Below are positions 4,592 to 36,003 of a stretch of 64,000 bases of DNA, piece by piece (the stretch's first letter is position 1; every line of letters starts with the position of its first letter). The position numbers and the translations under genes are program-made. This DNA comes from Dehalococcoidia bacterium (GTDB taxonomy: Bacteria > Chloroflexota > Dehalococcoidia > Lucifugimonadales > Australimonadaceae). The notes under the pieces were generated by a model, which did not search any database, was not told where the DNA came from, and worked only from the letters and a program-made list of their open reading frames with translations. The stretch lies in NCBI GenBank assembly GCA_963668465.1, contig OY764542.1, positions 2,368,520 to 2,432,519 on the forward strand, in the 5' to 3' direction.

Positions 4592-5070
4592 CGAGGCGGG
4601 CGCGTCGCATACTCGGGCTGCGGTAGCCCCCATCCTGCCTCCATGTTGCTTTAGTGACACGCGCCCGTGGCACGGACGATTCCCCCTTCGTTATCATGAC
4701 TCCATGACTGCGCGACCGGCCCGGACGCTCCCCGCCCAGCCCCGTATGCAACGGAATGAGACACCCGCCGCGCCCGGGAAAGTTGTTATTCGATGGAATC
4801 TTGAAACCTTGAACGCAGGAAGCAGGCCGTGGCCTTGAAAACGCCCTATTTCAAGGTGATCAAGATACTCATTTTGGAGACCCCGTTTACTCCTGAAACC
4901 ACGTTCAAGATTCCAGGAACTGCGGCTCGGTGGAATCTTGAAGCCTGCTCCTTCTCCCGCTCCCGGTGGCGGGAGAGGGCGGGGCGCCCACCCCACGCTT
5001 GACCGTCATGCCGCAGGGGAACATACTCTGCCCGTTAGCCTAGATCAGAAGGAAACCGAGGAGGCCCGGG

Positions 5071-6203: not shown

Positions 6204-7196
6204 ATGCGGCGGGTGGAGAGGCGGCCCAGGAGGCCGAATGGGCGTTCGCGCCGCCTGCTCGTGCTCGTCGTAGCGCTCGGAGCGCTCATGCTCGTGGCCG
6301 GGCCGCTCATCGGCTTCTTCCTCGTCTACACCGCCCCGAGCCAGCAGTGGTTCGCCCGCGTCAACGGCGTCGAGATACCCCGCGCCATCCTCGTCGACGT
6401 CCTCCGCGCCAACCAGATCGACGCCCTGCTCCAGCGGCAGCGGTTCGAGCCGGGCACGCAGGCCTTCGACACCGCCGGCCTGCTCATCGATAACGAGGTG
6501 CTGCGCCAGACGGCAGACGCCCTCGGCATCGCCGTGAGCGAGGCGGACATCGACCGCGAGCTCGCAGCCCAGCTCACCCCGCAGCTGGACGCCGCGAACC
6601 TCGACGCCTCCGCCCGCGCCGAACTCGCCGAGGCGAAGCGCCAGTACGCCGACCTCCGGCACCTCGACATCACTGAGCTGGAGAGACTGGCTGAGGGAGA
6701 ATTGCTCCGCCGGAAGGCCACCGAGGCGCTCGGGCGCTCCATCGTCGACCCACAGCCACAGATACGCCTGCACTCCATCGTGGTTGCCGACGTGGAGACC
6801 GCCACGCGTATCCAGGGTGAGGCCGTGCAGGGGGCGCCATTCGAGGACCTGGCGCGCCGCTACTCGCTCGACCCCGCCTCCGGCGACCTCGGCTGGCTGC
6901 CCTACGCCGCGCTTCCGCCTGCTGCCGCGGACCTCCTGTGGAACCTCCCCCCGTCGGAGCTCTCCCCGCCGTTCCAGCGCGGCGACGGCGCGATTGTCGT
7001 CTACGCCATCAGCGCGCGTGACCCCTCCCTCGGGCTCGATCCCGTCGCAAGGCAGTTGCTGGAGGAAGCGGAGTTCGGGTCGTGGCTCGGCGAGACGCGT
7101 GCAGCGCAGGACATCGAACTACAACTGGACTCGGAGACGCTGGACTGGGTGGCCGACCAACTCGAACAGACGCGGAGCATCGCGCCACAGGGCTGA
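6204..7196 (+). CDS. Membrane-anchored PpiC/parvulin-type peptidyl-prolyl isomerase (SurA/PrsA-like)
   Basis: N-terminal basic segment plus TM helix. Parvulin-like block: IRLHSIVVADVETA...FEDLARRYSLDPASGDLGWLP...GAIVVYAI. Confidence 0.65.
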   Translation: MRRVERRPRRPNGRSRRLLVLVVALGALMLVAGPLIGFFLVYTAPSQQWFARVNGVEIPRAILVDVLRANQIDALLQRQRFEPGTQAFDTAGLLIDNEVLRQTADALGIAVSEADIDRELAAQLTPQLDAANLDASARAELAEAKRQYADLRHLDITELERLAEGELLRRKATEALGRSIVDPQPQIRLHSIVVADVETATRIQGEAVQGAPFEDLARRYSLDPASGDLGWLPYAALPPAAADLLWNLPPSELSPPFQRGDGAIVVYAISARDPSLGLDPVARQLLEEAEFGSWLGETRAAQDIELQLDSETLDWVADQLEQTRSIAPQG

Positions 7197-7212
7197 CGTG
7201 GCGTGCGGGCGC

Positions 7213-8154
7213 TTATGGCTGGCGGTGAGTCCGCCGCCCCAGCCAATCCCCCAGCAGGAGCGACGAGAAGCTCTGGCGCTCCACGGCTGGAGCATGCGCT
7301 GGCGGAGCGTCGCGCAGTCGGTCCACTCGCGCCTCGACCAGTTCGACGAGCCGCTTCGCCGCCTCTGCGTAGTCCGGCTTCGCGAGCGCGGCCTCGCGCA
7401 GGCCGCTCGTTGCTCCAGCGAGCCGGTCCAACCACGAAGCGAATGTCTCCGGCGCACACTCCAGCACGACGGCAAGCTCCTCCGGATCGAGCTCGGCAGC
7501 CGTGCGCAAGGCTTGGGAGAACGCGTCTCCCTGGAGGCGGCGCACGTCGCGCCAGACGGGGCTTGCGGAGACCGCGTCCACCGCTGCGCTCGCGGCGATG
7601 CGCGGCAGGTACTCGGTGGCGATGACGAAGCTGTCGTGCTCCGCCGCGTCGAGGAAGAACGGGCTGGCGCCGACGGCTCTGGCAAGCCCGGTCACGGCCT
7701 CGACTGCCTCACCCGAGGCGGTCGTCGACGGAACGATGGCATAGTCCGTACCGTCGAACGGCGCCTCGGTGCCTTCGCTCGTTGTATGAGGCACCGGACG
7801 CCCGCCGACGAAGTACATCCCGCTCGGCAGACATTCTTCCGCCCAGCGCAGCAGCGGCGCTTTCAGGGGGCACGTATCCGTGACGACACTCTCGGCTGGC
7901 GCGAACTGCCCGATGATGCGCAAGGCGTCTCTTGCGGACGCCAGCGGTGAGGAGAGCACGACGAGCTTCGCGCCAGCCATCGCCGCTGCGGCGCTCTTCG
8001 GCGCATCGTCGAGCGCGCCTGCCTCGACGGCACGCCTTCCCGTCGCGGAGTCAGGGTCGAACCCTGCGATCGATATGCCTTGGACACGGGACCTGATCGC
8101 GCGTCCGAGCGCGACACCCAGAGGGCTGAGGCCGATGATGGCGATGTCAGGCAT
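7213..8154 (-). CDS. tyrA: Prephenate/arogenate dehydrogenase
   Basis: N-terminal Rossmann motif IAIIGLSPLGVALGRAI. Also VVLSSPLASARDAL, VVTDTCPLKAP and YFVGGRPV. Confidence 0.8.
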   Translation of the reverse strand: MPDIAIIGLSPLGVALGRAIRSRVQGISIAGFDPDSATGRRAVEAGALDDAPKSAAAAMAGAKLVVLSSPLASARDALRIIGQFAPAESVVTDTCPLKAPLLRWAEECLPSGMYFVGGRPVPHTTSEGTEAPFDGTDYAIVPSTTASGEAVEAVTGLARAVGASPFFLDAAEHDSFVIATEYLPRIAASAAVDAVSASPVWRDVRRLQGDAFSQALRTAAELDPEELAVVLECAPETFASWLDRLAGATSGLREAALAKPDYAEAAKRLVELVEARVDRLRDAPPAHAPAVERQSFSSLLLGDWLGRRTHRQP

Positions 8155-8170: not shown

Positions 8171-9103
8171 CTACGACCCGGAGCGGTAGCCGCCGCCGGT
8201 GCCCCGCATGCGGGGGTCGAGCAGGTCGCGGAGTGCGTCGCCGAGCACGTTCCAGCCGAACACGGTCAGGCTCAGGAAGACGCCCGGCCAGATGGCGAGC
8301 CACGGTGCAATCTCCATGTATGTTCGCGACTCCGAGGCGAGCATCCGTCCCCAGGATGGGAACGGCGGCGGGACGCCGTAGCCGAGGAAGCTGAGCGATG
8401 CCTCGATGAGGATCACCTGTCCCAGGCGCAGGCTCGCCAGGATGATGATAGGCACCATCACGTTCGGCAGCACGTGCCGCACAAGGATGCGCAGAGTGGT
8501 CGCGCCGTTGACGCGCGCCGCCTCCACGAACGGCTGCTCCTTGAGCGCCAGCACGGCGCCGCGCAGCACGCGGCTCTCTCGTATCGCCACGAGACCCAGT
8601 ACGAGCGTCACGTTCAGTGTGCTCGGCCCCAGGATGGACATCACGAACAGGAGGAGCAGCAGTGGCGGCACGCTCATCCAGGCGTCCACCAGCCGCTGTA
8701 CCAGCGTGTCGAACTTGCCGCCCATGTAGCCACTCGTGATGCCGATGAGACCGGCAAGTATGCTGCCGAGCGTTACCGACCCGAGCGCTACCACGATGGA
8801 AACACGCGCTCCGTGCACGAGCCTGCTGAACAGGTCCCGCCCGATGAAGTCGGTCCCCAGGAAGTAGCTGAGGCTCGACCCCTGCAACGCGTCGGAGAAG
8901 TGCGGCTCGTCGTAAGGGTAGGGCGCTATCCAGTTGGCGAACACTGCCATGAGCAGCATGATCATGACGATGACTGCGCCGACCGCCCCCAGTGGCTTCT
9001 CGGTGAATAGCCTCGTCACCAGCCCGATGAAGCCGCCGCGTGCACGGCGTGGCAGCCTCGTCGCGGCGGGCGCTCCTTGTGCTCTTGTTCCTTCGACAGC
9101 CAT
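8171..9103 (-). CDS. ABC transporter permease, peptide/nickel (DppC/OppC-like) family
   Basis: Six-TM BPD_transp_1-type protein with EAARVNGATTLRILVRHVLPN, an EAA-like loop. Confidence 0.85.
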   Translation of the reverse strand: MAVEGTRAQGAPAATRLPRRARGGFIGLVTRLFTEKPLGAVGAVIVMIMLLMAVFANWIAPYPYDEPHFSDALQGSSLSYFLGTDFIGRDLFSRLVHGARVSIVVALGSVTLGSILAGLIGITSGYMGGKFDTLVQRLVDAWMSVPPLLLLLFVMSILGPSTLNVTLVLGLVAIRESRVLRGAVLALKEQPFVEAARVNGATTLRILVRHVLPNVMVPIIILASLRLGQVILIEASLSFLGYGVPPPFPSWGRMLASESRTYMEIAPWLAIWPGVFLSLTVFGWNVLGDALRDLLDPRMRGTGGGYRSGS

Positions 9104-9106
9104 GGC

Positions 9107-10084
9107 CTAGGCGTACTTTATCCGGGGGTCGAGAACGCCGTAGAGCAGGTCCACGACGAGGTTGATGAGAACGGTGGCGCCCGCGAAGGTGAGGATGATG
9201 GTCTGCGCGGGGACGTAGTCCCGGTTCTGGAGCGACTGCAGCATGTAGATGCCCATGCCGGGCAGATTGAATATCTGCTCGATGATGACCGTGCCGCCGA
9301 GCAGGAACGGGATCTGTAGACCGATGAGCGTCAGCACGGGGATAAGCGCGTTCCGCACTGCGTGGCGGTACCAGATGGTGCGAGGCTGAAGTCCCTTCGC
9401 CCACGCGGTTCGGATGTAGTCTTGCCGCACCACTTCCAGGAGCATGGCGCGGGTCATCCGGATCGTTCCGCCCATGAGCGGTATGCCGACGATAACGCCG
9501 GGCAGCGCCATCACGCTCAGGTTCTTGATGGGGTCCTCCGTGAACGGCACGTAGCTGAGCGGTGGCGCCCAGCCGAAGAACAGCGCCGGCAGCGTTACCA
9601 CGAGGGTGCCGATCCACAGGATCGGCACCGCCACGAGGCCGATGGAGACGGAGCGCAGTGCGTAGTCGACCCACGTGTCCTGCCGGACGGCCGTGATGAT
9701 GCCGATGGGGATGGACAGCACGATGCTCACAACCAGCGCGATGATGGAGAGTTCCAGCGTGACGGGATAGCGCCGGCCGAGCTCGTGCGTGACGGTGTTG
9801 CCTGTCCAGAGTGATTGTCCAAGGTCACCCACGAACAATCCTCCGAACCATTCACCGAACTGGACGTAGAACGGCTTGTGTAGTCCCAGCTCTCGGAGGA
9901 TGGCGTCACGGTCTGCAGCGTACCCGAAGTCGGAGAGCATCAGGTCAACGATGTCGCCGGGGATCAGGCGCAGCATGAAGAACGTGAGCACGCTCACGAC
10001 GAACATCGTGAGCGCGGCGAGCATCAGGCGGCGTATGACGAAGCGGTACACGGCGGTTCGGGCTCCAAACGTGCCCCTGGGCAC
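9107..10084 (-). CDS. ABC transporter permease, peptide/nickel (DppB/OppB-like) family
   Basis: N-terminal YRFVIRRLMLAALTMFVVSVLTFFMLRLIPGD and YIRTAWAKGL motif, typical of DppB/OppB. Confidence 0.85.
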   Translation of the reverse strand: MPRGTFGARTAVYRFVIRRLMLAALTMFVVSVLTFFMLRLIPGDIVDLMLSDFGYAADRDAILRELGLHKPFYVQFGEWFGGLFVGDLGQSLWTGNTVTHELGRRYPVTLELSIIALVVSIVLSIPIGIITAVRQDTWVDYALRSVSIGLVAVPILWIGTLVVTLPALFFGWAPPLSYVPFTEDPIKNLSVMALPGVIVGIPLMGGTIRMTRAMLLEVVRQDYIRTAWAKGLQPRTIWYRHAVRNALIPVLTLIGLQIPFLLGGTVIIEQIFNLPGMGIYMLQSLQNRDYVPAQTIILTFAGATVLINLVVDLLYGVLDPRIKYA

Positions 10085-11170: not shown

Positions 11171-11876
11171 CGCTGTGCTCCTCGCCTGGAAGGAGACTCG
11201 CTCCTACTACGGTTCACCGATGGCATACGTCGTAAGCGCCGCATTCCTTGCGCTCACGGGACAGTTCTTCGTGTCCGGTGTCTCCGAACTACTCCCGGAA
11301 GCTTCGCTCCGCGACGTCTTCACGCCCATGACGTTCGCGCTCATCCTCTGGGCCCCCATCGCGAGCATGCGGCTTCTGGCGGAGGAGCAGAAGCTCGGCA
11401 CGCTGGAGCTCCTGCTCACCGCTCCGCTGCGCGACTGGGAGATCGTCGTTGGGAAGTTCTGCGCGCTGGTGGCGATGCTTCTGGGCATCATCGCTCCGAC
11501 GCTCGTGTACGTAGTGCTGCTCTACTGGTACGCCTCGCCGGACGGCGGACCGATGCTCACCGGCTATCTTGGCCTGCTTCTGTACGGTTCAGCTGCTGCG
11601 GCGCTGGGACTGTTCACCTCCTCGCTCACCGGTAACCAGATCGTCGCCGGTGTAACCGCCGCAGTGGCGCTGCTCTTTCTCACACTGGCGAGCGAGGCCT
11701 CTGGCCTCGTATCAGGCTTGCCGTCGGCACTCCTTGCTGGCGTTTCCCTGCCTTCCCACTACACGGCATTCGTCGCGGGTGTCATCGAGTTGCGAAACGT
11801 CGTTTACTTCATCACCTTCATCGCGCTCTTCCTCTTCCTGACCACGCTCAGCCTGGAGTCCCGGCGATGGCGGTAA
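11163..11876 (+). CDS. ABC-2 family transporter permease (GldF-like)
   Basis: MRNAVLLAWKETRSYYGSPMAYV... polytopic membrane protein. ATG at 11163 overlaps the ATPase stop by 8 nt. Confidence 0.75.
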   Translation: MRNAVLLAWKETRSYYGSPMAYVVSAAFLALTGQFFVSGVSELLPEASLRDVFTPMTFALILWAPIASMRLLAEEQKLGTLELLLTAPLRDWEIVVGKFCALVAMLLGIIAPTLVYVVLLYWYASPDGGPMLTGYLGLLLYGSAAAALGLFTSSLTGNQIVAGVTAAVALLFLTLASEASGLVSGLPSALLAGVSLPSHYTAFVAGVIELRNVVYFITFIALFLFLTTLSLESRRWR

Positions 11877-24958: not shown

Positions 24959-25684
24959 CTACCTGACCAGCAGTGAGATCGCCGCGGCGACGATGACGAT
25001 CTCGACGATGTAGACGAACGCCTTGTCGGAGACGCGGTTGGTGATGGCACCGCCGACGTATGCGCCCACGACCATGACGAGGCCGAGCGAGAGGGCGAGG
25101 ATGAGGGCCTGCGAGTCGAGGAGGTCGAATGTCCCGTAGATGCCTATCTTGACGACGTTGATGATGGTCATGCCGGAGGCCATCGTGCCGACGAACGCGC
25201 CGCGGCGCAGTCCGTAGGCGAGGAAGAACGACGCGCCGAACGGCCCCGCGCCGCCGAAGAGCGCGGAGAGGAAGCCCTGTCCCGCGCCGACGCCGGTGAA
25301 AGCTCGCGGGCTCATCCGCATCCCGCCCTGCGCCAGCGGCGTATGCCGGAAGGCGACGATGAGCAGCAGGAAGACGGCGAACCCCTTCTGCAGCAGGTCG
25401 GCCGGAAGGTTGGCGAACGCGGTCGCGCCGACGATGGACGTCGGGAACGCGCCGATGAAGAACCACTTGACCACGCTGCGGTCGATGAGGTGGCGGTTGA
25501 CCCAGATGCGCGACCAGGTCTGCATCATCACTGCGACGGTGGCGATGGGGACGGCCTCGCGGATGCCGACGGCGAACGTGAGGGCCGGGATCATGATGAT
25601 GGCGGAGCCAAGGCCCGCCATCCCACCGATGACCGCCGAGAGGAAGGCGATGACGCCGAGCGCGACGAGAACGACCGGGTCCAT
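24959..25684 (-). CDS. TauE/SafE family sulfite/anion exporter
   Basis: 241 aa, about 8 TM, repeated G-rich helices (GGMAGLGSAIIMIPAL..., FGGAGPFGASFF). Confidence 0.75.
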   Translation of the reverse strand: MDPVVLVALGVIAFLSAVIGGMAGLGSAIIMIPALTFAVGIREAVPIATVAVMMQTWSRIWVNRHLIDRSVVKWFFIGAFPTSIVGATAFANLPADLLQKGFAVFLLLIVAFRHTPLAQGGMRMSPRAFTGVGAGQGFLSALFGGAGPFGASFFLAYGLRRGAFVGTMASGMTIINVVKIGIYGTFDLLDSQALILALSLGLVMVVGAYVGGAITNRVSDKAFVYIVEIVIVAAAISLLVR

Positions 25685-25687
25685 CCG

Positions 25688-26422
25688 CTATCCCGTCGCC
25701 AGCAGCAGCAGCCCGGAAACGATCATGAGCGCTTCCACCGCGTAGATGAACAGCCTCTCCGGCACGCGCTTGACGATGTGCGCTCCGGCGTAGGCCCCCA
25801 CCGCCATGACGAGGCCGATGCCGACGGCGATGAGGAACGTCTCCATCGTGAAGAGCGAGAAGCTTCCGTAGACCATCGTCTTGACGATGCTGACGAGGAA
25901 CGTTCCGACGGCGACGGTGCCGACGAACGCGTTCTTCGTGAGGCCGTAGGCCATGAAGAAGTGCGCGCCGAACGGCCCCGCACCACCGAAGATGGCGGAG
26001 AAGAAGCCCTGCCCGATGCCGACGGGCAGGAAGGCGCGGAGAGGCATCGCGCGGCCCGCAACGAGGGGTATGTGCCGGTAGACCACGAGCGCGAGCAGGA
26101 AGACGCCGAGCCCTCTCGCGAGCAGGTCGGTGGGGATGTTCGCGAACACGATGCCGCCAACGGCAGCGGCAGGCACCGCGCCGAGGCTGTACCAGCGGGC
26201 GACGCGCCAGTCCACGTAGTCCCAGTTCGCTATGGAGCGCGAGAGCGTGTTCAGCAGCATCGCGACGGTGACGATAGGGACGGCGAGGCGTATGCCGAAC
26301 GCGAATATCAGGATGGGGATGGCGATGATGCCGGTGCTCATCCCCGTAACGCCCCCGATGACGGCGGCGACCAGCGACGTCGCGACGACCGCCGCAGCGA
26401 CGAGCGGGCTGATCTCCGGCAT
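25688..26422 (-). CDS. TauE/SafE family sulfite/anion exporter (tandem paralog)
   Basis: 244 aa, colinear with the downstream paralog (GGVTGMSTGIIAIPIL..., FGGAGPFGAHFF). Starts 9 nt after the leuB stop. Confidence 0.75.
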   Translation of the reverse strand: MPEISPLVAAAVVATSLVAAVIGGVTGMSTGIIAIPILIFAFGIRLAVPIVTVAMLLNTLSRSIANWDYVDWRVARWYSLGAVPAAAVGGIVFANIPTDLLARGLGVFLLALVVYRHIPLVAGRAMPLRAFLPVGIGQGFFSAIFGGAGPFGAHFFMAYGLTKNAFVGTVAVGTFLVSIVKTMVYGSFSLFTMETFLIAVGIGLVMAVGAYAGAHIVKRVPERLFIYAVEALMIVSGLLLLATG

Positions 26423-28208: not shown

Positions 28209-29612
28209 TTAGTTCAGGTCGCGCACGTCGACGAAGTGCCCCGCGATGGCGGCTGCCGCGGCCATCGGCGGGCTGACAAGGTGCGTGCGTCCGCCGGGGC
28301 CCTGCCGCCCCTCGAAGTTGCGGTTGGAGGTCGAGGCGCTGCGCTCGCCGGGGGCGAGCCGGTCCGGGTTCATGGCGAGGCACATCGAGCACCCGGCGTC
28401 GCGCCACTCGAACCCGGCTTCGGTGAACACCTGGTCGAGCCCTTCCGCTTCCGCCTGCTGCTTCACCGCCCAAGAGCCGGGAACGACGAGCGCGCGGACG
28501 CTGCCGGCCTTCTGCTTGCCCTTCGCCACCTCGGCGGCGGCGCGGAGGTCCTCGATGCGGGAGTTGGTGCATGAGCCGATGAAGACCGTGTCGATGGCGA
28601 TGTCCTGGATGCGCTCTCCGCCGCTCAGGCCCATGTACGCAAGCGCCTTCTCGACGGCGCCCTGCTCCTGCGACGACTCGAAGTCGTCCGGCTTCGGGAC
28701 GCGCCCGCCGACAGGGAGCACTTGCGCGGGGTTCGTGCCCCACGTCACCTGGGGCTGGATGTCGGCGGCGTCCAGGGTGACGACCGTGTCGAAGACCGCG
28801 TCGGGGTCGGTGCGGAGGGCGGCCCAGCGTTCGACGGCGGCGTCCCAGTCCTCGCCCTTCGGGGCGTACTCGCGTCCCTTCAGGTAGGCGAACGTCTTCT
28901 CGTCGGGGGCGACCATGCCGGTGCGCGCTCCGGCCTCGATGGACATGTTGCAGACCGTCATGCGGCCTTCCATGGACATCTCGCGGAAGACGGAGCCGGT
29001 GTACTCGATGGCGTGGCCGATGCCGCCGGACGTGCCGATCTTGCCGATGATGGCGAGGATGACGTCCTTGGGCGTGACACCGAAGCCGAGCGTGCCGTCC
29101 ACGCGTATCTCCATCGTCTTCGGCTTCGCCTGCCAGATGCACTGCGTCGCCAGGACGTGCTCGACCTCGGACGTACCGATGCCGAACGCCATCGCGCCGA
29201 CCGCGCCGTGCGTCGCGGTGTGGCTGTCGCCGCAGACGATGATCATGCCGGGCTGCGTGCGCCCCTGTTCCGGACCGATGACGTGGACGATGCCCTGCTT
29301 CTCGCTGAACATGTCGTGGTACTCGAGGCCGAACTCCTCGGCGTTGCGCTGCATCGCCTCGAGCTGTGCCTTCGAGACCTCGTCCGTGAGGGGCTTGTCG
29401 CGGTCGTTGGTCGGCACGTTGTGGTCGGCGACGGCGACGGTCTTGTCGAGCCTGCGGATGCGCCGGTTGTTGAGGCGCAGGCCGTCGAACGCCTGGGGTG
29501 AGGTGACTTCGTGGACGAGGTGCAGGTCGACGTAGAGCAGGGAAGGCTTGCCTTCCTCCTCCCGCACGACGTGCGTGTCCCATATCTTCTCGAACATCGT
29601 CTTGGGGGCCAT
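28209..29612 (-). CDS. leuC: 3-isopropylmalate dehydratase large subunit
   Basis: [38 protein letters not shown]; RBS GGAGGA. Confidence 0.93.
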
Positions 29613-29630
29613 CTGATCCTCCGCTTCTAT

Positions 29631-30086
29631 TCAGACAGCGAAATCGTCCAGGACCAGGTAGGGGAGATCGCTGTTCCTGGCGAATGCGCGGTCGTTGCCG
29701 ATGATGACGTCGCAGCGGTTCGCTGCCGCAGTCGCTGCGATGATAGCATCCGGCGCTTTCAAGTTGGTGGAGGCGCGCACTTGGGCCGCTGCCTGTGCGA
29801 TGTCGCTGCTCATGGGAGTGACATACAGGTTGGGGTGGAGGGCGAAGAACCGGCGTATAGAGAACAACAGGCCCCTGTCCCGTATGCGGAGCGGGCGCAC
29901 GAGCGTCTCCATCTCCACCATGGTCGATACGAAGCCGACCGCTGCGCCGCTCGCCAGGAGTGAGAACGCCTGCGCCGCGTAGACGCCGTACGGGTAGTTG
30001 CCCTCCAGGTAGTAGATGACGGCGTTAGTGTCGAACGCTATCCGTGTCCTGCCCGCGAGGGCGTCGCTCAGGGCCGACGTCATCAA
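29631..30086 (-). CDS. vapC: PIN-domain ribonuclease toxin (VapC-like)
   Basis: IAFDTNAVIYY, EMETL, PDAIIAATA and GNDRAF supply the PIN acidic residues. The start overlaps the upstream antitoxin stop by 4 nt. Confidence 0.8.
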   Translation of the reverse strand: MMTSALSDALAGRTRIAFDTNAVIYYLEGNYPYGVYAAQAFSLLASGAAVGFVSTMVEMETLVRPLRIRDRGLLFSIRRFFALHPNLYVTPMSSDIAQAAAQVRASTNLKAPDAIIAATAAANRCDVIIGNDRAFARNSDLPYLVLDDFAV

Positions 30087-30625
30087 TCGGCCTTGAGCGA
30101 CGCTGCTACCTCGCCGTCCAGCCGGTAGCGCTCCGGCTCTTCGTCCTGCGGGGGGATGCGCCGCACCCAGCGGTTGGATGTGAGCCTGTCCAGCGTCCGA
30201 GGCAGGTCGGTGGGGTGGCCGTTCTCAGGGATTAGCCATTCCAGGTCGGGGAACGTGGCCACGTAGTGCGGGCAATCCATGAGCGTGTCAGCGACTGCCC
30301 GCACGCCGCTGTCCGTGGCGTACAGATCCTCGAACCGCTTGCACCACTCGCGCGGGTCCGTATCACTCATGTGTTCGGACAGCGGCTCGTACCAGCTCTC
30401 GCGTTCGCGCAGGACATAACGGTCGATGCTCTCTTTGGTGCCGCCGTATGCCCCTTTCATGCTCCCTTGAAAATACTGCACCCAGCTCTCCGGCTCCTTG
30501 ACGAGCACGATGTCCCCATCTATGACGGCTGCGGCGAGCGTGTCGCCGGGATTGATGCCGATCTCCCGGAGGATGGCGACGGGGATGGTTATCTGGTTCT
30601 TGCTGCTGACGGTTATCGTGCGCAT
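30083..30625 (-). CDS. AbrB/SpoVT-family antitoxin (VapB-like) with an unusual ~130-aa C-terminal extension
   Basis: N-terminus MRTITVSSKNQITIPVAILREIGINPGDTL...IVLVKEP is a swapped-hairpin AbrB/MazE fold signature. The remaining ~130 aa are unrecognised. Confidence 0.75.
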   Translation of the reverse strand: MRTITVSSKNQITIPVAILREIGINPGDTLAAAVIDGDIVLVKEPESWVQYFQGSMKGAYGGTKESIDRYVLRERESWYEPLSEHMSDTDPREWCKRFEDLYATDSGVRAVADTLMDCPHYVATFPDLEWLIPENGHPTDLPRTLDRLTSNRWVRRIPPQDEEPERYRLDGEVAASLKAD

Positions 30626-30634
30626 AGCGGGCCT

Positions 30635-30713
30635 CGGCTGCTTGGTATTCCTTACCAGTAGGACAAATAGTAAAGCCTACCAAGCAGCCGGTCAAGCCCT
30701 ATAGTCAAGCCCT
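30635..30713 (-). promoter_or_regulatory. Internal promoter plus operator for vapBC (and possibly leuCDB)
   Basis: On the minus strand, TTGACC (30695-30690), a 17-nt spacer, then TACTAT (30672-30667). A perfect 13-bp inverted repeat CGGCTGCTTGGTA/TACCAAGCAGCCG (30635-30647 and 30678-30690) brackets the -10 element. Direct repeat GTCAAGCCCT x2 at 30691-30713. Confidence 0.6.
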
Positions 30714-30737
30714 GCAACAGAAGAGGCGGAACCCCCG

Positions 30738-32288
30738 TTAGACGGCGTTTGCCGCCTCCGGCGAGCGGGTGGTGTCGCCCATCGCGATCAGGCGGTTGAG
30801 CGCGTTCATGTAGGCGCGGGCGCATGCGACGATGATGTCCGTGTCCGCGCCGCGTCCGATGTATGGCTTGCCGTCCTGCTCGATGCGGATGCTCACCTCG
30901 CCGATAGCGTCGATGCCCTCCGTGACCGAATTGACGCTGAACTCCGTCAGCTCGTTCGGTACGCCGACGATCCGGTTGATGGCCTGGTAGACAGCGTCGA
31001 CCGGGCCGGTGCCCGTCGCCGCGTCGGTGCGGACCGTCCCGTCCTCGAGGGAGAGTTGCACCGTCGCGGTCGGGATCTCGCCGGTGCCGCAGGTGACCTG
31101 CACGTGTTCCAGCGAGTACGTCTCCTCGATGGCTGTGCGCTCGTTGCCCATGAGGGCGATGAGGTCGCGGTCCGTCACCTCGCGCTTCTTGTCAGCGAGC
31201 TCCTTGAAGGACTCGTGCACCTTGTCGAGTTCCTCGTTGGTGAGCGCGTAGCCGAGCTCTTCGAGCCGCGAGCGCAGGCCGTGGCGTCCGCTCAGCTTGC
31301 CGAGCACGAGTTCGCTCCGGGGAACGCCCACGTCCAGCGGGTTCAGGATCTCGTAGGTGGTGCGCTCCTTCAGCACACCGTCCTGGTGGATGCCGGAGGC
31401 GTGCCGGAACGCGTTGCGCCCGATGACCGCCTTGTTGGGCTGCACCGGGAAGCCGCTCACCTGGCTCACGAGGCGGCTGGTGTTGTACAGCTGCTTCGTG
31501 TCGATGTCCGTGTCTACGCCGAAGTAGTCGCCGCGCGTGCGGAGCGCCATGATGACTTCTTCGACGGCGGTGTTCCCCGCGCGCTCGCCGATGCCGTTGA
31601 TGCAGCCCTCGACCTGGCGGGCCCCCGCCTTCACTGCGGAGAGGCTGTTGGCGACCGACATGCCGAGGTCGTCGTGGCAGTGCACGGAGATGCGGACGCT
31701 GTCGCCCAGTTCCGGCACCTCGGCGCGCAGGTAGGTGATGAGGCCGCCGAACTCCTCGGGGACCGCGTAGCCGACCGTGTCGGGGATGTTGATGGTCGTC
31801 GCGCCCGCATCGACGGCTGCCCGCACCATGTGCGCGAGGAACTCGCGCTCCGTGCGGCTGGAGTCCATGGGGGAGAACTCGACGTCGTCGGTGTATTGGC
31901 GCGCCCGGGAGACGGCCTTCACCGCGATCTCCACCACCTCTTCCCGGTTCTTGCGCAACTGGTGCTGGATGTGCTGGTCCGAGGAAGAGATGAAGATGTG
32001 GATGCGCGGGTGCGCCGCGTCTTTCAGCGCCTCACCGGCGCGGTCCACCGCGGCCTCGTTCGCGTGCGCGAGCGCCGCGATGATCGGCTTCCGCACCTCG
32101 CGAGCGATCTTCTGGACGGCTTCGAAGTCGCCGGGAGAGCTGACGGGGAAGCCCGCCTCGATGATGTCGACGTTCAGCCGCTCCAGCTGCCTGGCGATCT
32201 CCACCTTCTCTTCCACTGTCATCCCCGCCCCGGCGGACTGCTCTCCGTCCCGGAGCGTCGTGTCGAAGATGAGCACTCGGTCTTCCAT
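30738..32288 (-). CDS. leuA: 2-isopropylmalate synthase
   Basis: IFDTTLRDGEQ, HCHDDLGM, and a C-terminal LeuA dimerisation/regulatory domain. ATG at 32288 is preceded by GGAGGA. Confidence 0.93.
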   Translation of the reverse strand: MEDRVLIFDTTLRDGEQSAGAGMTVEEKVEIARQLERLNVDIIEAGFPVSSPGDFEAVQKIAREVRKPIIAALAHANEAAVDRAGEALKDAAHPRIHIFISSSDQHIQHQLRKNREEVVEIAVKAVSRARQYTDDVEFSPMDSSRTEREFLAHMVRAAVDAGATTINIPDTVGYAVPEEFGGLITYLRAEVPELGDSVRISVHCHDDLGMSVANSLSAVKAGARQVEGCINGIGERAGNTAVEEVIMALRTRGDYFGVDTDIDTKQLYNTSRLVSQVSGFPVQPNKAVIGRNAFRHASGIHQDGVLKERTTYEILNPLDVGVPRSELVLGKLSGRHGLRSRLEELGYALTNEELDKVHESFKELADKKREVTDRDLIALMGNERTAIEETYSLEHVQVTCGTGEIPTATVQLSLEDGTVRTDAATGTGPVDAVYQAINRIVGVPNELTEFSVNSVTEGIDAIGEVSIRIEQDGKPYIGRGADTDIIVACARAYMNALNRLIAMGDTTRSPEAANAV

Positions 32289-32336
32289 GTCATTCCTCCG
32301 CAAACAGGCCGCTCACGGCCTCCGCTGTGCCGGCGG

Positions 32337-35704: not shown

Positions 35705-35967
35705 GGTAAAAAAAGACCCGCCCCACGAAGGGACGGGCCGTTAACCCGCGGTACCACCCTAGTTCCCCGGCTCTTGATGGGCCGAGGCAGCTTTGCCTGC
35801 GCGGTAACGGCGCGCTCCGCTGGCCCTACTCTTGCTGTTCAGGCCAGCCGCTCGGGGACGAGTTCAGGGGGGCTTGTCCATCGCCGGTCTCGCACCAGAA
35901 CGACCGGCTCTCTGAGGTGCGCTTGCCCCGTACTACTTCCCTTCCCAGCGGAACGGATGTTAGAAGC
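35705..35967 (-). promoter_or_regulatory. T-box leader (tRNA-Leu responsive, CUC specifier) for the ilv-leu operon
   Basis: On the minus strand: conserved T-box AACUAGGGUGGUACCGCG (35764-35747); AGAGAG bulge and GGUGCGA distal-loop motifs; GAA-CUC-G specifier context (CUC at 35862-35860); UGGU bulge, implying an A discriminator. It ends in a terminator hairpin plus U7. Confidence 0.8.
35708..35737 (-). terminator. T-box terminator hairpin
   Basis: Minus strand CCCGUCCC-uucgu-GGGGCGGG followed by UCUUUUUUU, overlapping the 3' half of the T-box antiterminator. Confidence 0.75.
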
Positions 35968-35973
35968 GGCGAC

Positions 35974-36003
35974 ATGATAGTACAAAGTCTCACGCCGAGT
36001 CAA
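35974..36003 (-). promoter_or_regulatory. Sigma-70-like promoter of the ilv-leu leader
   Basis: Minus strand TTGACT (36003-35998), an 18-nt spacer, then TATCAT (35979-35974). Confidence 0.5.

Follow-up and report, generated by a model that had tools for sequence, protein, structure and literature searches.

In a 64,000-nucleotide stretch of the genome of a Dehalococcoidia bacterium (contig OY764542.1, positions 2,368,520 to 2,432,519; hereafter "the window"), a toxin-antitoxin (TA) pair of the VapBC type, made of an AbrB-type antitoxin and a PIN-domain toxin, lies between leuA and leuC of a T-box-controlled ilv-leu operon. Comparison with related loci leads us to propose that the pair derives from a canonical VapBC module, and that its promoter and its antitoxin have probably been taken over, in part, as an internal regulator of leuCDB. 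The evidence comes from the position and descent of the pair, from its coupling to leuC, from the unusual architecture of the antitoxin, and from relatives in which the toxin gene has been lost.

The position of the module is fixed. In all loci that encode a long antitoxin like that of the window (13/13), the module is found directly after leuA, directly before leuC, or both; the loci read besides the window were L001, L002, L005, L006, L009, L010, L011, L091-L095 and L128. The closest of them, L095 (94% nucleotide identity; GenBank MKWU01), comes from a metagenome of the sponge Aplysina aerophoba. When synonymous divergence (dS) was compared between the window and L001, values of 0.31-0.51 were obtained for the pair and 0.21-0.36 for its flanks; against the more distant L006, the values were 0.96-1.25 and 0.81-1.15, respectively. 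In addition, the antitoxin tree mirrors the leuCD tree. Because both dS and tree topology match those of the flanks, the pair appears to be old and vertically inherited, and recent horizontal replacement is ruled out, as the dS of the pair equals that of its neighbors. Antitoxin and PIN are both under purifying selection (ratio of nonsynonymous divergence, dN, to dS, or omega, 0.18-0.38), looser than that acting on the leu genes (0.04-0.18).

In the outgroup Dehalococcoidia loci L012 and L022, leuA abuts leuC, which points to a single ancestral insertion. The outgroup set was obtained from a GTDB genome scan with LeuC that contained, among the matches listed, one close relative (L011), while LeuC identity was at most 70% in the rest. 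The module thus appears to go back to one insertion, in the ancestor of a clade of sponge-associated Chloroflexota, and to have been transmitted vertically ever since. An initial sequence-only reading of the window had described the pair as an insert that splits the operon, and the synteny of the relatives bears this out. That reading had also called the wiring of an RNase toxin into such an operon unusual. The insert is neither recent nor a one-off: it is clade-wide, sits in the same place in every long-antitoxin locus, and is as old as its flanks. The mobile, patchy, multi-copy distribution in variable contexts that is typical of TA systems is not seen in the long-antitoxin subfamily.

The partner to which the pair is most tightly tied is leuC. 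In all loci that carry the PIN gene, 18-22 nucleotides (nt) separate PIN from leuC, and only a ribosome-binding site is found between them. As this gap has no room for a promoter or a terminator, leuCDB must be transcribed through the pair; judging from the sequence, leuCDB and two downstream genes of the TauE family are necessarily co-transcribed with it. Lineages in which the operon has been split offer a natural test. In L005, L009 and L010, leuA and the T-box are absent, a gene for a periplasmic binding protein lies upstream of the pair, and the pair has been kept 19 nt before leuC (pair-leuCD). In the lineage without leuA, a scan of 7 kb gave just two promoter-like sites, one of them the promoter of the pair, TTGACA-18-TACGAT. 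The conserved partner of the pair is thus leuC and not the T-box. This bears on the earlier suggestion that read-through from the leucine T-box feeds transcription of the pair: read-through is plausible because no intrinsic terminator is found between leuA and the antitoxin gene, but such wiring is not conserved, as L005, L009 and L010 have no T-box. Within the window, no hairpin between leuA and the antitoxin gene is followed by a T-run, and a terminator scan of the coding strand from leuA to leuC yielded only a weak, chance-level hairpin inside the PIN gene.

A side observation concerns L005, where a promoter-like site, TTGACA-17-TACGAT, is found at 11738-11766, just before leuB and right after an inserted RHH-PemK pair. 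Its hexamers are identical to those of the AbrB-PIN promoter of the same genome. The existence of this second promoter-like site suggests that each insertion may bring, or be compensated by, a new promoter.

The antitoxin is larger than expected. The sequence-only reading had called it an AbrB-fold antitoxin, which is correct for its N-terminal domain; however, the protein is not a plain VapB, as a winged-helix-like domain has been added to it. The PF04014 (MazE/AbrB) match spans only residues 5-48 of the 180 amino acids (aa) (expectation value, E, 2e-8); TIGR01439 matches as well, and the two models together span residues 3-48. A search of 5.8 billion proteins returned 22 clusters of antitoxin relatives with 52-96% identity, nearly all of them full length. 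The nearest relatives outside this family, of metagenomic origin and with 31-52% identity, are canonical two-gene modules in which an AbrB antitoxin of 72-90 aa is followed by a PIN protein of 145-153 aa (PIN profile E 1e-35 to 1e-42). These short relatives occupy varied contexts, and one such pair lies within a TA/defence island. Their antitoxins end in ...ER.SW(E), exactly at residue 79 of the long antitoxin. Because the short relatives stop at this residue, the long antitoxin is a complete canonical VapB (1-79) followed by a variable spacer and an added domain (90-180).

The added domain was modeled with AlphaFold2, using an alignment from which the L006 protein was left out. Across most of residues 90-180, the predicted local distance difference test score (pLDDT) was 80-87, and the model shows an extra N-terminal helix followed by helix-strand-helix-helix-strand-strand, the order of a winged helix. 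The best local fold matches are regulators of the ArsR/SmtB and MarR families (template modeling score, TM, 0.67-0.68; root-mean-square deviation, rmsd, 2.4-3.0), among them SqrR (TM 0.68, rmsd 2.4) and CzrA (TM 0.67). The resemblance is one of fold only and does not amount to membership in either family. No Pfam or NCBIfam model matches residues 90-180, and a search of the PDB with the antitoxin profile gave marginal AbrB matches only, with none for the C-terminal domain. When 1.84 billion representative proteins were searched exhaustively with phmmer, the extra domain had just five real matches, all of them in this antitoxin family. As far as its sequence is concerned, the domain is an invention of this clade.

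Loss of the toxin in some relatives provides a natural deletion series. In L011, L092 and L094, which are three independent assemblies (one of them a 980-kb long-read contig), roughly the first 100 codons of PIN have been deleted and the antitoxin open reading frame (ORF) is intact. A PIN remnant of about 47-52 codons persists in L011 and L094; in L092, no detectable PIN match is left, only a further-decayed stretch. Because the three loci share approximately one deletion junction, a single ancestral deletion is plausible. When the domains of the antitoxin were analyzed separately, their fates were found to differ. The tail (residues 48-79) retains only 20% identity between L011 and L092/L094, with omega 0.8-0.9. 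In PIN-bearing loci, the same segment is among the best conserved parts of the antitoxin (50-88% identity; omega 0.07-0.36 where measurable). Omega in the PIN-less loci was 0.23-0.29 for the AbrB domain and 0.28-0.29 for the winged-helix-like domain, about the same as in PIN-bearing loci in both cases. Since the tail is constrained only where PIN is present, we infer that it is the PIN-neutralizing segment. In turn, the persistence of purifying selection after PIN loss suggests that the AbrB and winged-helix-like domains act independently of PIN, most simply in DNA binding and regulation.

Other loci in this series deserve a separate mention. The most divergent long antitoxin, that of L128 (47% identity), is encoded after leuA; the next 200 nt (843-1044), rich in C/G repeats, contain no detectable PIN, and L128 may represent a further, independent loss of the toxin. 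In L094, a long-read contig, leuC is distributed over three ORFs (6691-8092) and leuB over two (8764-9862), and either homopolymer sequencing errors or real pseudogenes can explain it. In L003, a short scaffold, sequence from the end of leuA occurs twice (1-360); between the copies lie a run of Ns and a fragment similar to the PIN remnant. Scaffolding has probably joined, by artefact, strain variants with and without PIN.

The pair brings its own promoter-like site of the sigma-70 type, TTGACC-17-TACTAT, and a perfect 13-bp inverted repeat that brackets the -10 element; both had been pointed out in the sequence-only reading, and both were recovered here and found to be maintained in relatives. 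A promoter scan over 10.5 kb gave just two such sites, this one and that of the whole operon. In 11 of 11 loci examined, from genomes with about 65% G+C, we found TTGACN and TACNNN separated by 17-19 nt, with an invariant TTTAC core. The arms of the repeat (30690-30678 and 30647-30635) flank a 30-nt loop, and none of 500 shuffled sequences matched it. The window holds a single further perfect inverted repeat with arms of 12 bp or more (4904-4942, loop 15). The position of the repeat is kept in relatives, and in the close group the half-site TGCTTGGTA is retained on both arms, including the PIN-less loci, where the arms are 10 bp long. Because it is the sequence of the arms, rather than their pairing, that is conserved, a protein operator is favored over an RNA hairpin.

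Local duplications are also seen in this region. The -35 motif GGGCTTGAC occurs twice, five bases apart (30690-30712, minus strand), in the window only and not in L001 or L002. In L011, a non-coding insert of about 520 bp (6771-7290) separates leuA from the antitoxin gene, and the block containing the promoter and the half-site is duplicated in tandem (TTGACC...CTTGGTGTGCTTTACTTATG twice). Rfam searches of 29560-30800 and of the L011 insert, at a relaxed threshold, gave only chance-level matches to eukaryotic families.

Altogether, we consider it probable that this VapBC-derived module has been recruited in part by its host operon. An antitoxin dimer would bind the inverted repeat and repress the internal promoter, with PIN, bound through the tail, probably acting as co-repressor. 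The internal, autoregulated promoter would provide leuCDB with a basal input independent of the T-box, and read-through of the T-box upon leucine starvation would add a second input. Promoter and antitoxin would thus be partly recruited for leuCDB regulation, while PIN would still be an active but dispensable toxin. A stronger version, full take-over by the host, is quite unlikely in our view: the AbrB + winged-helix protein would be a dedicated leuCDB regulator, with the winged helix sensing a metabolite or binding a second DNA or RNA site, and PIN would act on an RNA related to leucine, for instance ilv-leu mRNA or tRNA-Leu, the ligand of the T-box, closing a feedback loop between leucine-starvation sensing and RNA cleavage.

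Several observations weigh against the recruitment proposal. The repeat is replaced by different, weaker repeats at the same place in L005, L009 and L006, and the half-sites of L128, CGCTTGGCAT and CGCTTGGTAT, are in direct orientation (250-311). In PIN-less loci, the -10 element is TACTTA, a poorer match, and the promoter scan finds none in L011, so the claim that the needs of leuCDB keep the promoter in place is weakened. Elsewhere in the window, TGCTTGGTA occurs at chance level and no other pairs of half-sites are found; hence, no wider regulon is visible. A weak terminator-like hairpin, within chance expectation, lies inside the PIN ORF (29883-29867). The fold matches of the extra domain are weak (E about 1e-2) and are accompanied by no Pfam family match. 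Each domain-wise dN/dS value was computed from 25-91 codons, and since the PIN-less lineages may go back to one deletion, their effective number is about 1-2. Finally, the host organisms are all uncultured.

The pattern admits other explanations. One is that the pair is a frozen selfish module, an ordinary addictive VapBC that landed in a tolerated junction of a genome rich in TA systems, is kept because its loss is hard, and plays no role for leuCDB. This possibility, which we regard as rather unlikely though worthy of attention, fits with the significant enrichment of TA systems, VapC included, in sponge symbionts that the A. aerophoba metagenome study reports (PMC5649159), with the small mobile genes of unrelated kinds that occupy leu junctions elsewhere in the Chloroflexota, with a dN of the pair 2-5 times faster than that of the flanking genes, and with the loss of PIN on at least one occasion. 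However, intact reading frames have been retained across a dS of about 1, two domains of the orphan antitoxin hold omega at about 0.25 and its tail drifts neutrally, and the pair stayed with leuCDB when the operon was split. Furthermore, the tight spacing makes the promoter of the pair the de facto promoter of leuCDB, whatever its origin. A very different view is that the region does not encode a TA system at all: PIN would serve as a non-toxic RNase dedicated to the processing of ilv-leu mRNA, and the protein encoded before it would simply be a transcription factor. Fixed position, single copy and purifying selection on PIN (omega 0.18-0.37) would agree with such a role, and the ilv-leu mRNA of B. 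subtilis is known to be processed. We nevertheless deem it highly improbable: its nearest relatives are short-antitoxin/PIN pairs of the canonical kind, which occur in varied contexts; conservation of the tail is confined to loci with PIN, as expected for a neutralizing contact; and three lineages have lost PIN without visible change in their leu genes.

The repeat itself could be explained mainly at the RNA level instead of as a DNA operator, as a hairpin present only in read-through transcripts started at the T-box promoter, which would hide the ribosome-binding site of the antitoxin and control translation or mRNA processing and stability. Folding predictions lend it some weight, as the spacer between leuA and the antitoxin gene pairs GGGCUU with AGGCCC, covering the GAGG ribosome-binding site, with a minimum free energy of -60.4 kcal/mol (z = -3.6; none of 200 shuffled sequences folds as well). 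Several one-sided changes in the arms are compatible with G-U pairing, and a two-sided change, from TGCTTGG/CCAAGCA to CGCTTGG/CCAAGCG, is found in L093. Yet what both arms keep is the sequence TGCTTGGTA, and true covariation is scarce; the 5' arm falls within the spacer of a promoter that is itself conserved, as is classic for TA operators; the direct half-sites of L128 cannot form a hairpin; and no Rfam family matches the region. That the repeat works mainly as an RNA hairpin thus seems to us very unlikely, although the hairpin may play some part besides the operator, and partial recruitment of the promoter and the antitoxin is the reading that we retain.

Assignment of the pair to the VapBC type, as made in the sequence-only reading, finds support in both genes. 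The PIN protein matches PF01850 (Pfam, E 3e-14), its acidic residues D19, E60, D113 and D132 are invariant in 18 sequences, and its closest solved relative is a VapC (7by2, E 1e-4); by its PIN domain and acidic active-site residues it belongs to the class. The antitoxin gene is immediately upstream, overlaps PIN by 1 or 4 nt and encodes an N-terminal DNA-binding domain, and the nearest outside relatives are canonical modules. Position between leuA and leuC and orientation along the operon are as originally described; the 4-nt overlap, however, exists only if PIN starts at the TTG at 30086. Because PIN homologues are 150 aa long, the ATG at 30083 is the likely start, with a 1-nt overlap (TGATG). 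Relatives of PIN were collected from the same 5.8 billion proteins as those of the antitoxin and formed 25 clusters. No PADLOC defence-system model corresponds to either PIN or the antitoxin, and a plasmid collection contained only distant PIN matches (29-32% identity, on plasmids of cyanobacteria); nothing here hints at a recent mobile source. PIN is probably an active RNase toxin, and a dispensable one, as it has been deleted in L011, L092 and L094; that leucine starvation triggers its activation is a pure inference.

When compared with canonical VapBC modules with an AbrB/SpoVT-type VapB (the short relatives L096-L127 and L007), the pair shares an upstream antitoxin gene that overlaps or is translationally coupled to the toxin gene, an AbrB N-terminal domain with a tail ending in ...ER.SW, a PIN protein, about 150 aa long, in which four acidic residues are conserved, and an inverted repeat at the promoter. 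It differs in the length of the antitoxin (174-245 aa versus 72-90 aa), owing to the winged-helix-like domain, and in that it is present in one copy, descends vertically and stays in a single housekeeping operon instead of being patchy or mobile, with biosynthetic genes that are predicted to be obligatorily co-transcribed downstream. SpoVT combines an AbrB domain with a C-terminal sensor domain. MqsA is an antitoxin that doubles as a transcription factor (PMC3920265). Like these proteins, the long antitoxin has two domains, one of them DNA-binding, and a regulatory role beyond toxin neutralization is plausible. Unlike them, it joins AbrB to a winged helix, a combination for which we found no example in Pfam or the PDB, and its control over other genes would come from its position in the operon and not from distant operators.

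The elements of the operon named in the sequence-only reading are all present, on the minus strand (Table 1). Its comparison with Bacillus applies in part. As in the T-box-controlled ilv-leu operon of Bacillus, a leader with a terminator and a leucine specifier codon (CUC) precedes ilvB-ilvN-ilvC-leuA and other leu genes. In contrast, the order here is leuA-leuC-leuD-leuB and that of B. subtilis is leuABCD; besides, the operon is split by a TA module with its own promoter, and two TauE genes are appended to it. The leuA gene and the antitoxin gene are separated by 112 nt. In each of the related loci, the tandem TauE/SafE-family genes come after leuB and point the same way, and they look like part of the operon.

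Table 1. Coordinates of the ilv-leu operon, of the inserted pair and its signals, and of cargo in the leu junctions of other loci (positions are those of the window unless a locus is named).
Feature	Position	Strand	Basis
Promoter-like site of whole operon, TTGACT-18-TATCAT	35974..36003	-	promoter scan
T-box leader, Leu (CUC) specifier	35726..35955	-	RF00230, 96.9 bits (gathering score 93)
T-box terminator hairpin	35739-35715	-	terminator scan
ilvB	35644-33944	-	translation; Pfam families of orthologues
ilvN	about 33956-33387	-	translation; Pfam families of orthologues
ilvC	33332-32337	-	translation; Pfam families of orthologues
leuA (2-isopropylmalate synthase)	30738..32303	-	HMGL-like, HCS_D2 and LeuA_dimer domains
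Direct upstream duplicate of GGGCTTGAC (-35 motif)	30696..30712	-	sequence read
Internal promoter-like site: -35 TTGACC (30695-30690), 17-nt spacer, -10 TACTAT (30672-30667)	30667..30695	-	
Perfect 13-bp inverted repeat CGGCTGCTTGGTA / TACCAAGCAGCCG around -10, putative operator	30635..30690	.	
AbrB-type antitoxin ORF, 180 aa	30625-30083	-	PF04014 + TIGR01439
Antitoxin residues 1-47, AbrB/SpoVT swapped-hairpin DNA-binding domain	30485..30625	-	Pfam, NCBIfam, model
Antitoxin residues 48-79, tail W.QYFQGSM.GAYGG..E..DR.V..ER.SWY, putative PIN-binding segment	30389..30484	-	homology to C-terminal end of short VapB
Antitoxin residues 90-180, added winged-helix-like C-terminal domain	30086..30358	-	AlphaFold2, fold search
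PIN toxin ORF (VapC-like), 150/151 aa	30086/30083-29631	-	PF01850
Spacer from PIN stop to leuC ATG, 18 nt, GGAGGA ribosome-binding site	29613..29630	-	sequence read
leuC	29612-28209	-	translation + domain matches
leuD	28169-27582	-	translation + domain matches
leuB	27532-26432	-	translation + domain matches
Two co-oriented TauE-family membrane protein genes	24959..26422	-	after leuB in all related loci
Cargo, L021	6114-7622, 9415-10029		
Cargo, L024	5827-7317		
Cargo, L020	9404-11309		
Cargo, L026	9450-10088		
Cargo, L015	10244-10855		
Cargo, L081	1499-1702		
Cargo, L005	11125-11672		
Cargo, L009	10558-10854		

Neither the fusion of a TA pair to a housekeeping operon nor a regulatory role of an antitoxin is new in itself. 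In Staphylococcus aureus, mazEF is co-transcribed with the sigB operon, and the mazEF promoter is needed for full sigma-B activity (PMC3920265). The present case would be similar in that a TA pair on the chromosome shares transcripts with a housekeeping operon, as predicted here from sequence, and in that the TA promoter would contribute to downstream expression. The differences are that a PIN/VapB pair replaces MazF/MazE, that the pair sits in the middle of the operon and not at its head, that S. aureus mazEF is not autoregulated, and that the genes downstream belong to T-box-controlled amino-acid biosynthesis, whereas those of S. aureus are regulatory (sigB). Arrangements of a similar kind are found in Listeria and in E. 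coli (relA-mazEF). In a non-exhaustive literature search, we found no precedent for a TA pair inside an ilv-leu operon or another amino-acid operon. What appears to be new is the architecture made of VapB and a winged-helix-like domain, the long vertical residence inside a T-box-controlled amino-acid operon, and a graded set of related loci in which probable partial recruitment by the host can be followed. Around this clade, loci can be ordered from the outgroups, in which the pair is absent, to those in which it is tied to leuCDB, those in which the operon is split and the pair goes with leuCDB, and those in which the toxin is deleted and only the tail decays. Such a series provides direct comparative evidence that a TA promoter and an antitoxin can be recruited into host regulation, and suggests the location of a toxin-binding segment without experiment. 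It also bears on the long-running argument over the function of chromosomal TA systems.

Small genes of other kinds are found in the same junctions elsewhere. In other metagenome-assembled genomes of Chloroflexota/Dehalococcoidia, and in one of Armatimonadales, the leu junctions harbor unrelated small genes of mobile or TA type: SLFN_AlbA_2 + HATPase_c_4, up to three Uma2 genes, MqsA-like + DUF4258, HicB-like, RHH + PemK, and DUF2442. The variety of this cargo indicates that leu junctions are permissive landing sites, and insertions seem to recur at the leuA-leuC, leuC-leuD and leuD-leuB junctions. A practical caution for annotation is that small mobile genes commonly interrupt the leu operons of Chloroflexota. 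In L024, a 109-bp unit is repeated three times in tandem (7419-7807) between the SLFN-like gene and leuC, with formation of three identical ORFs of 56 aa.

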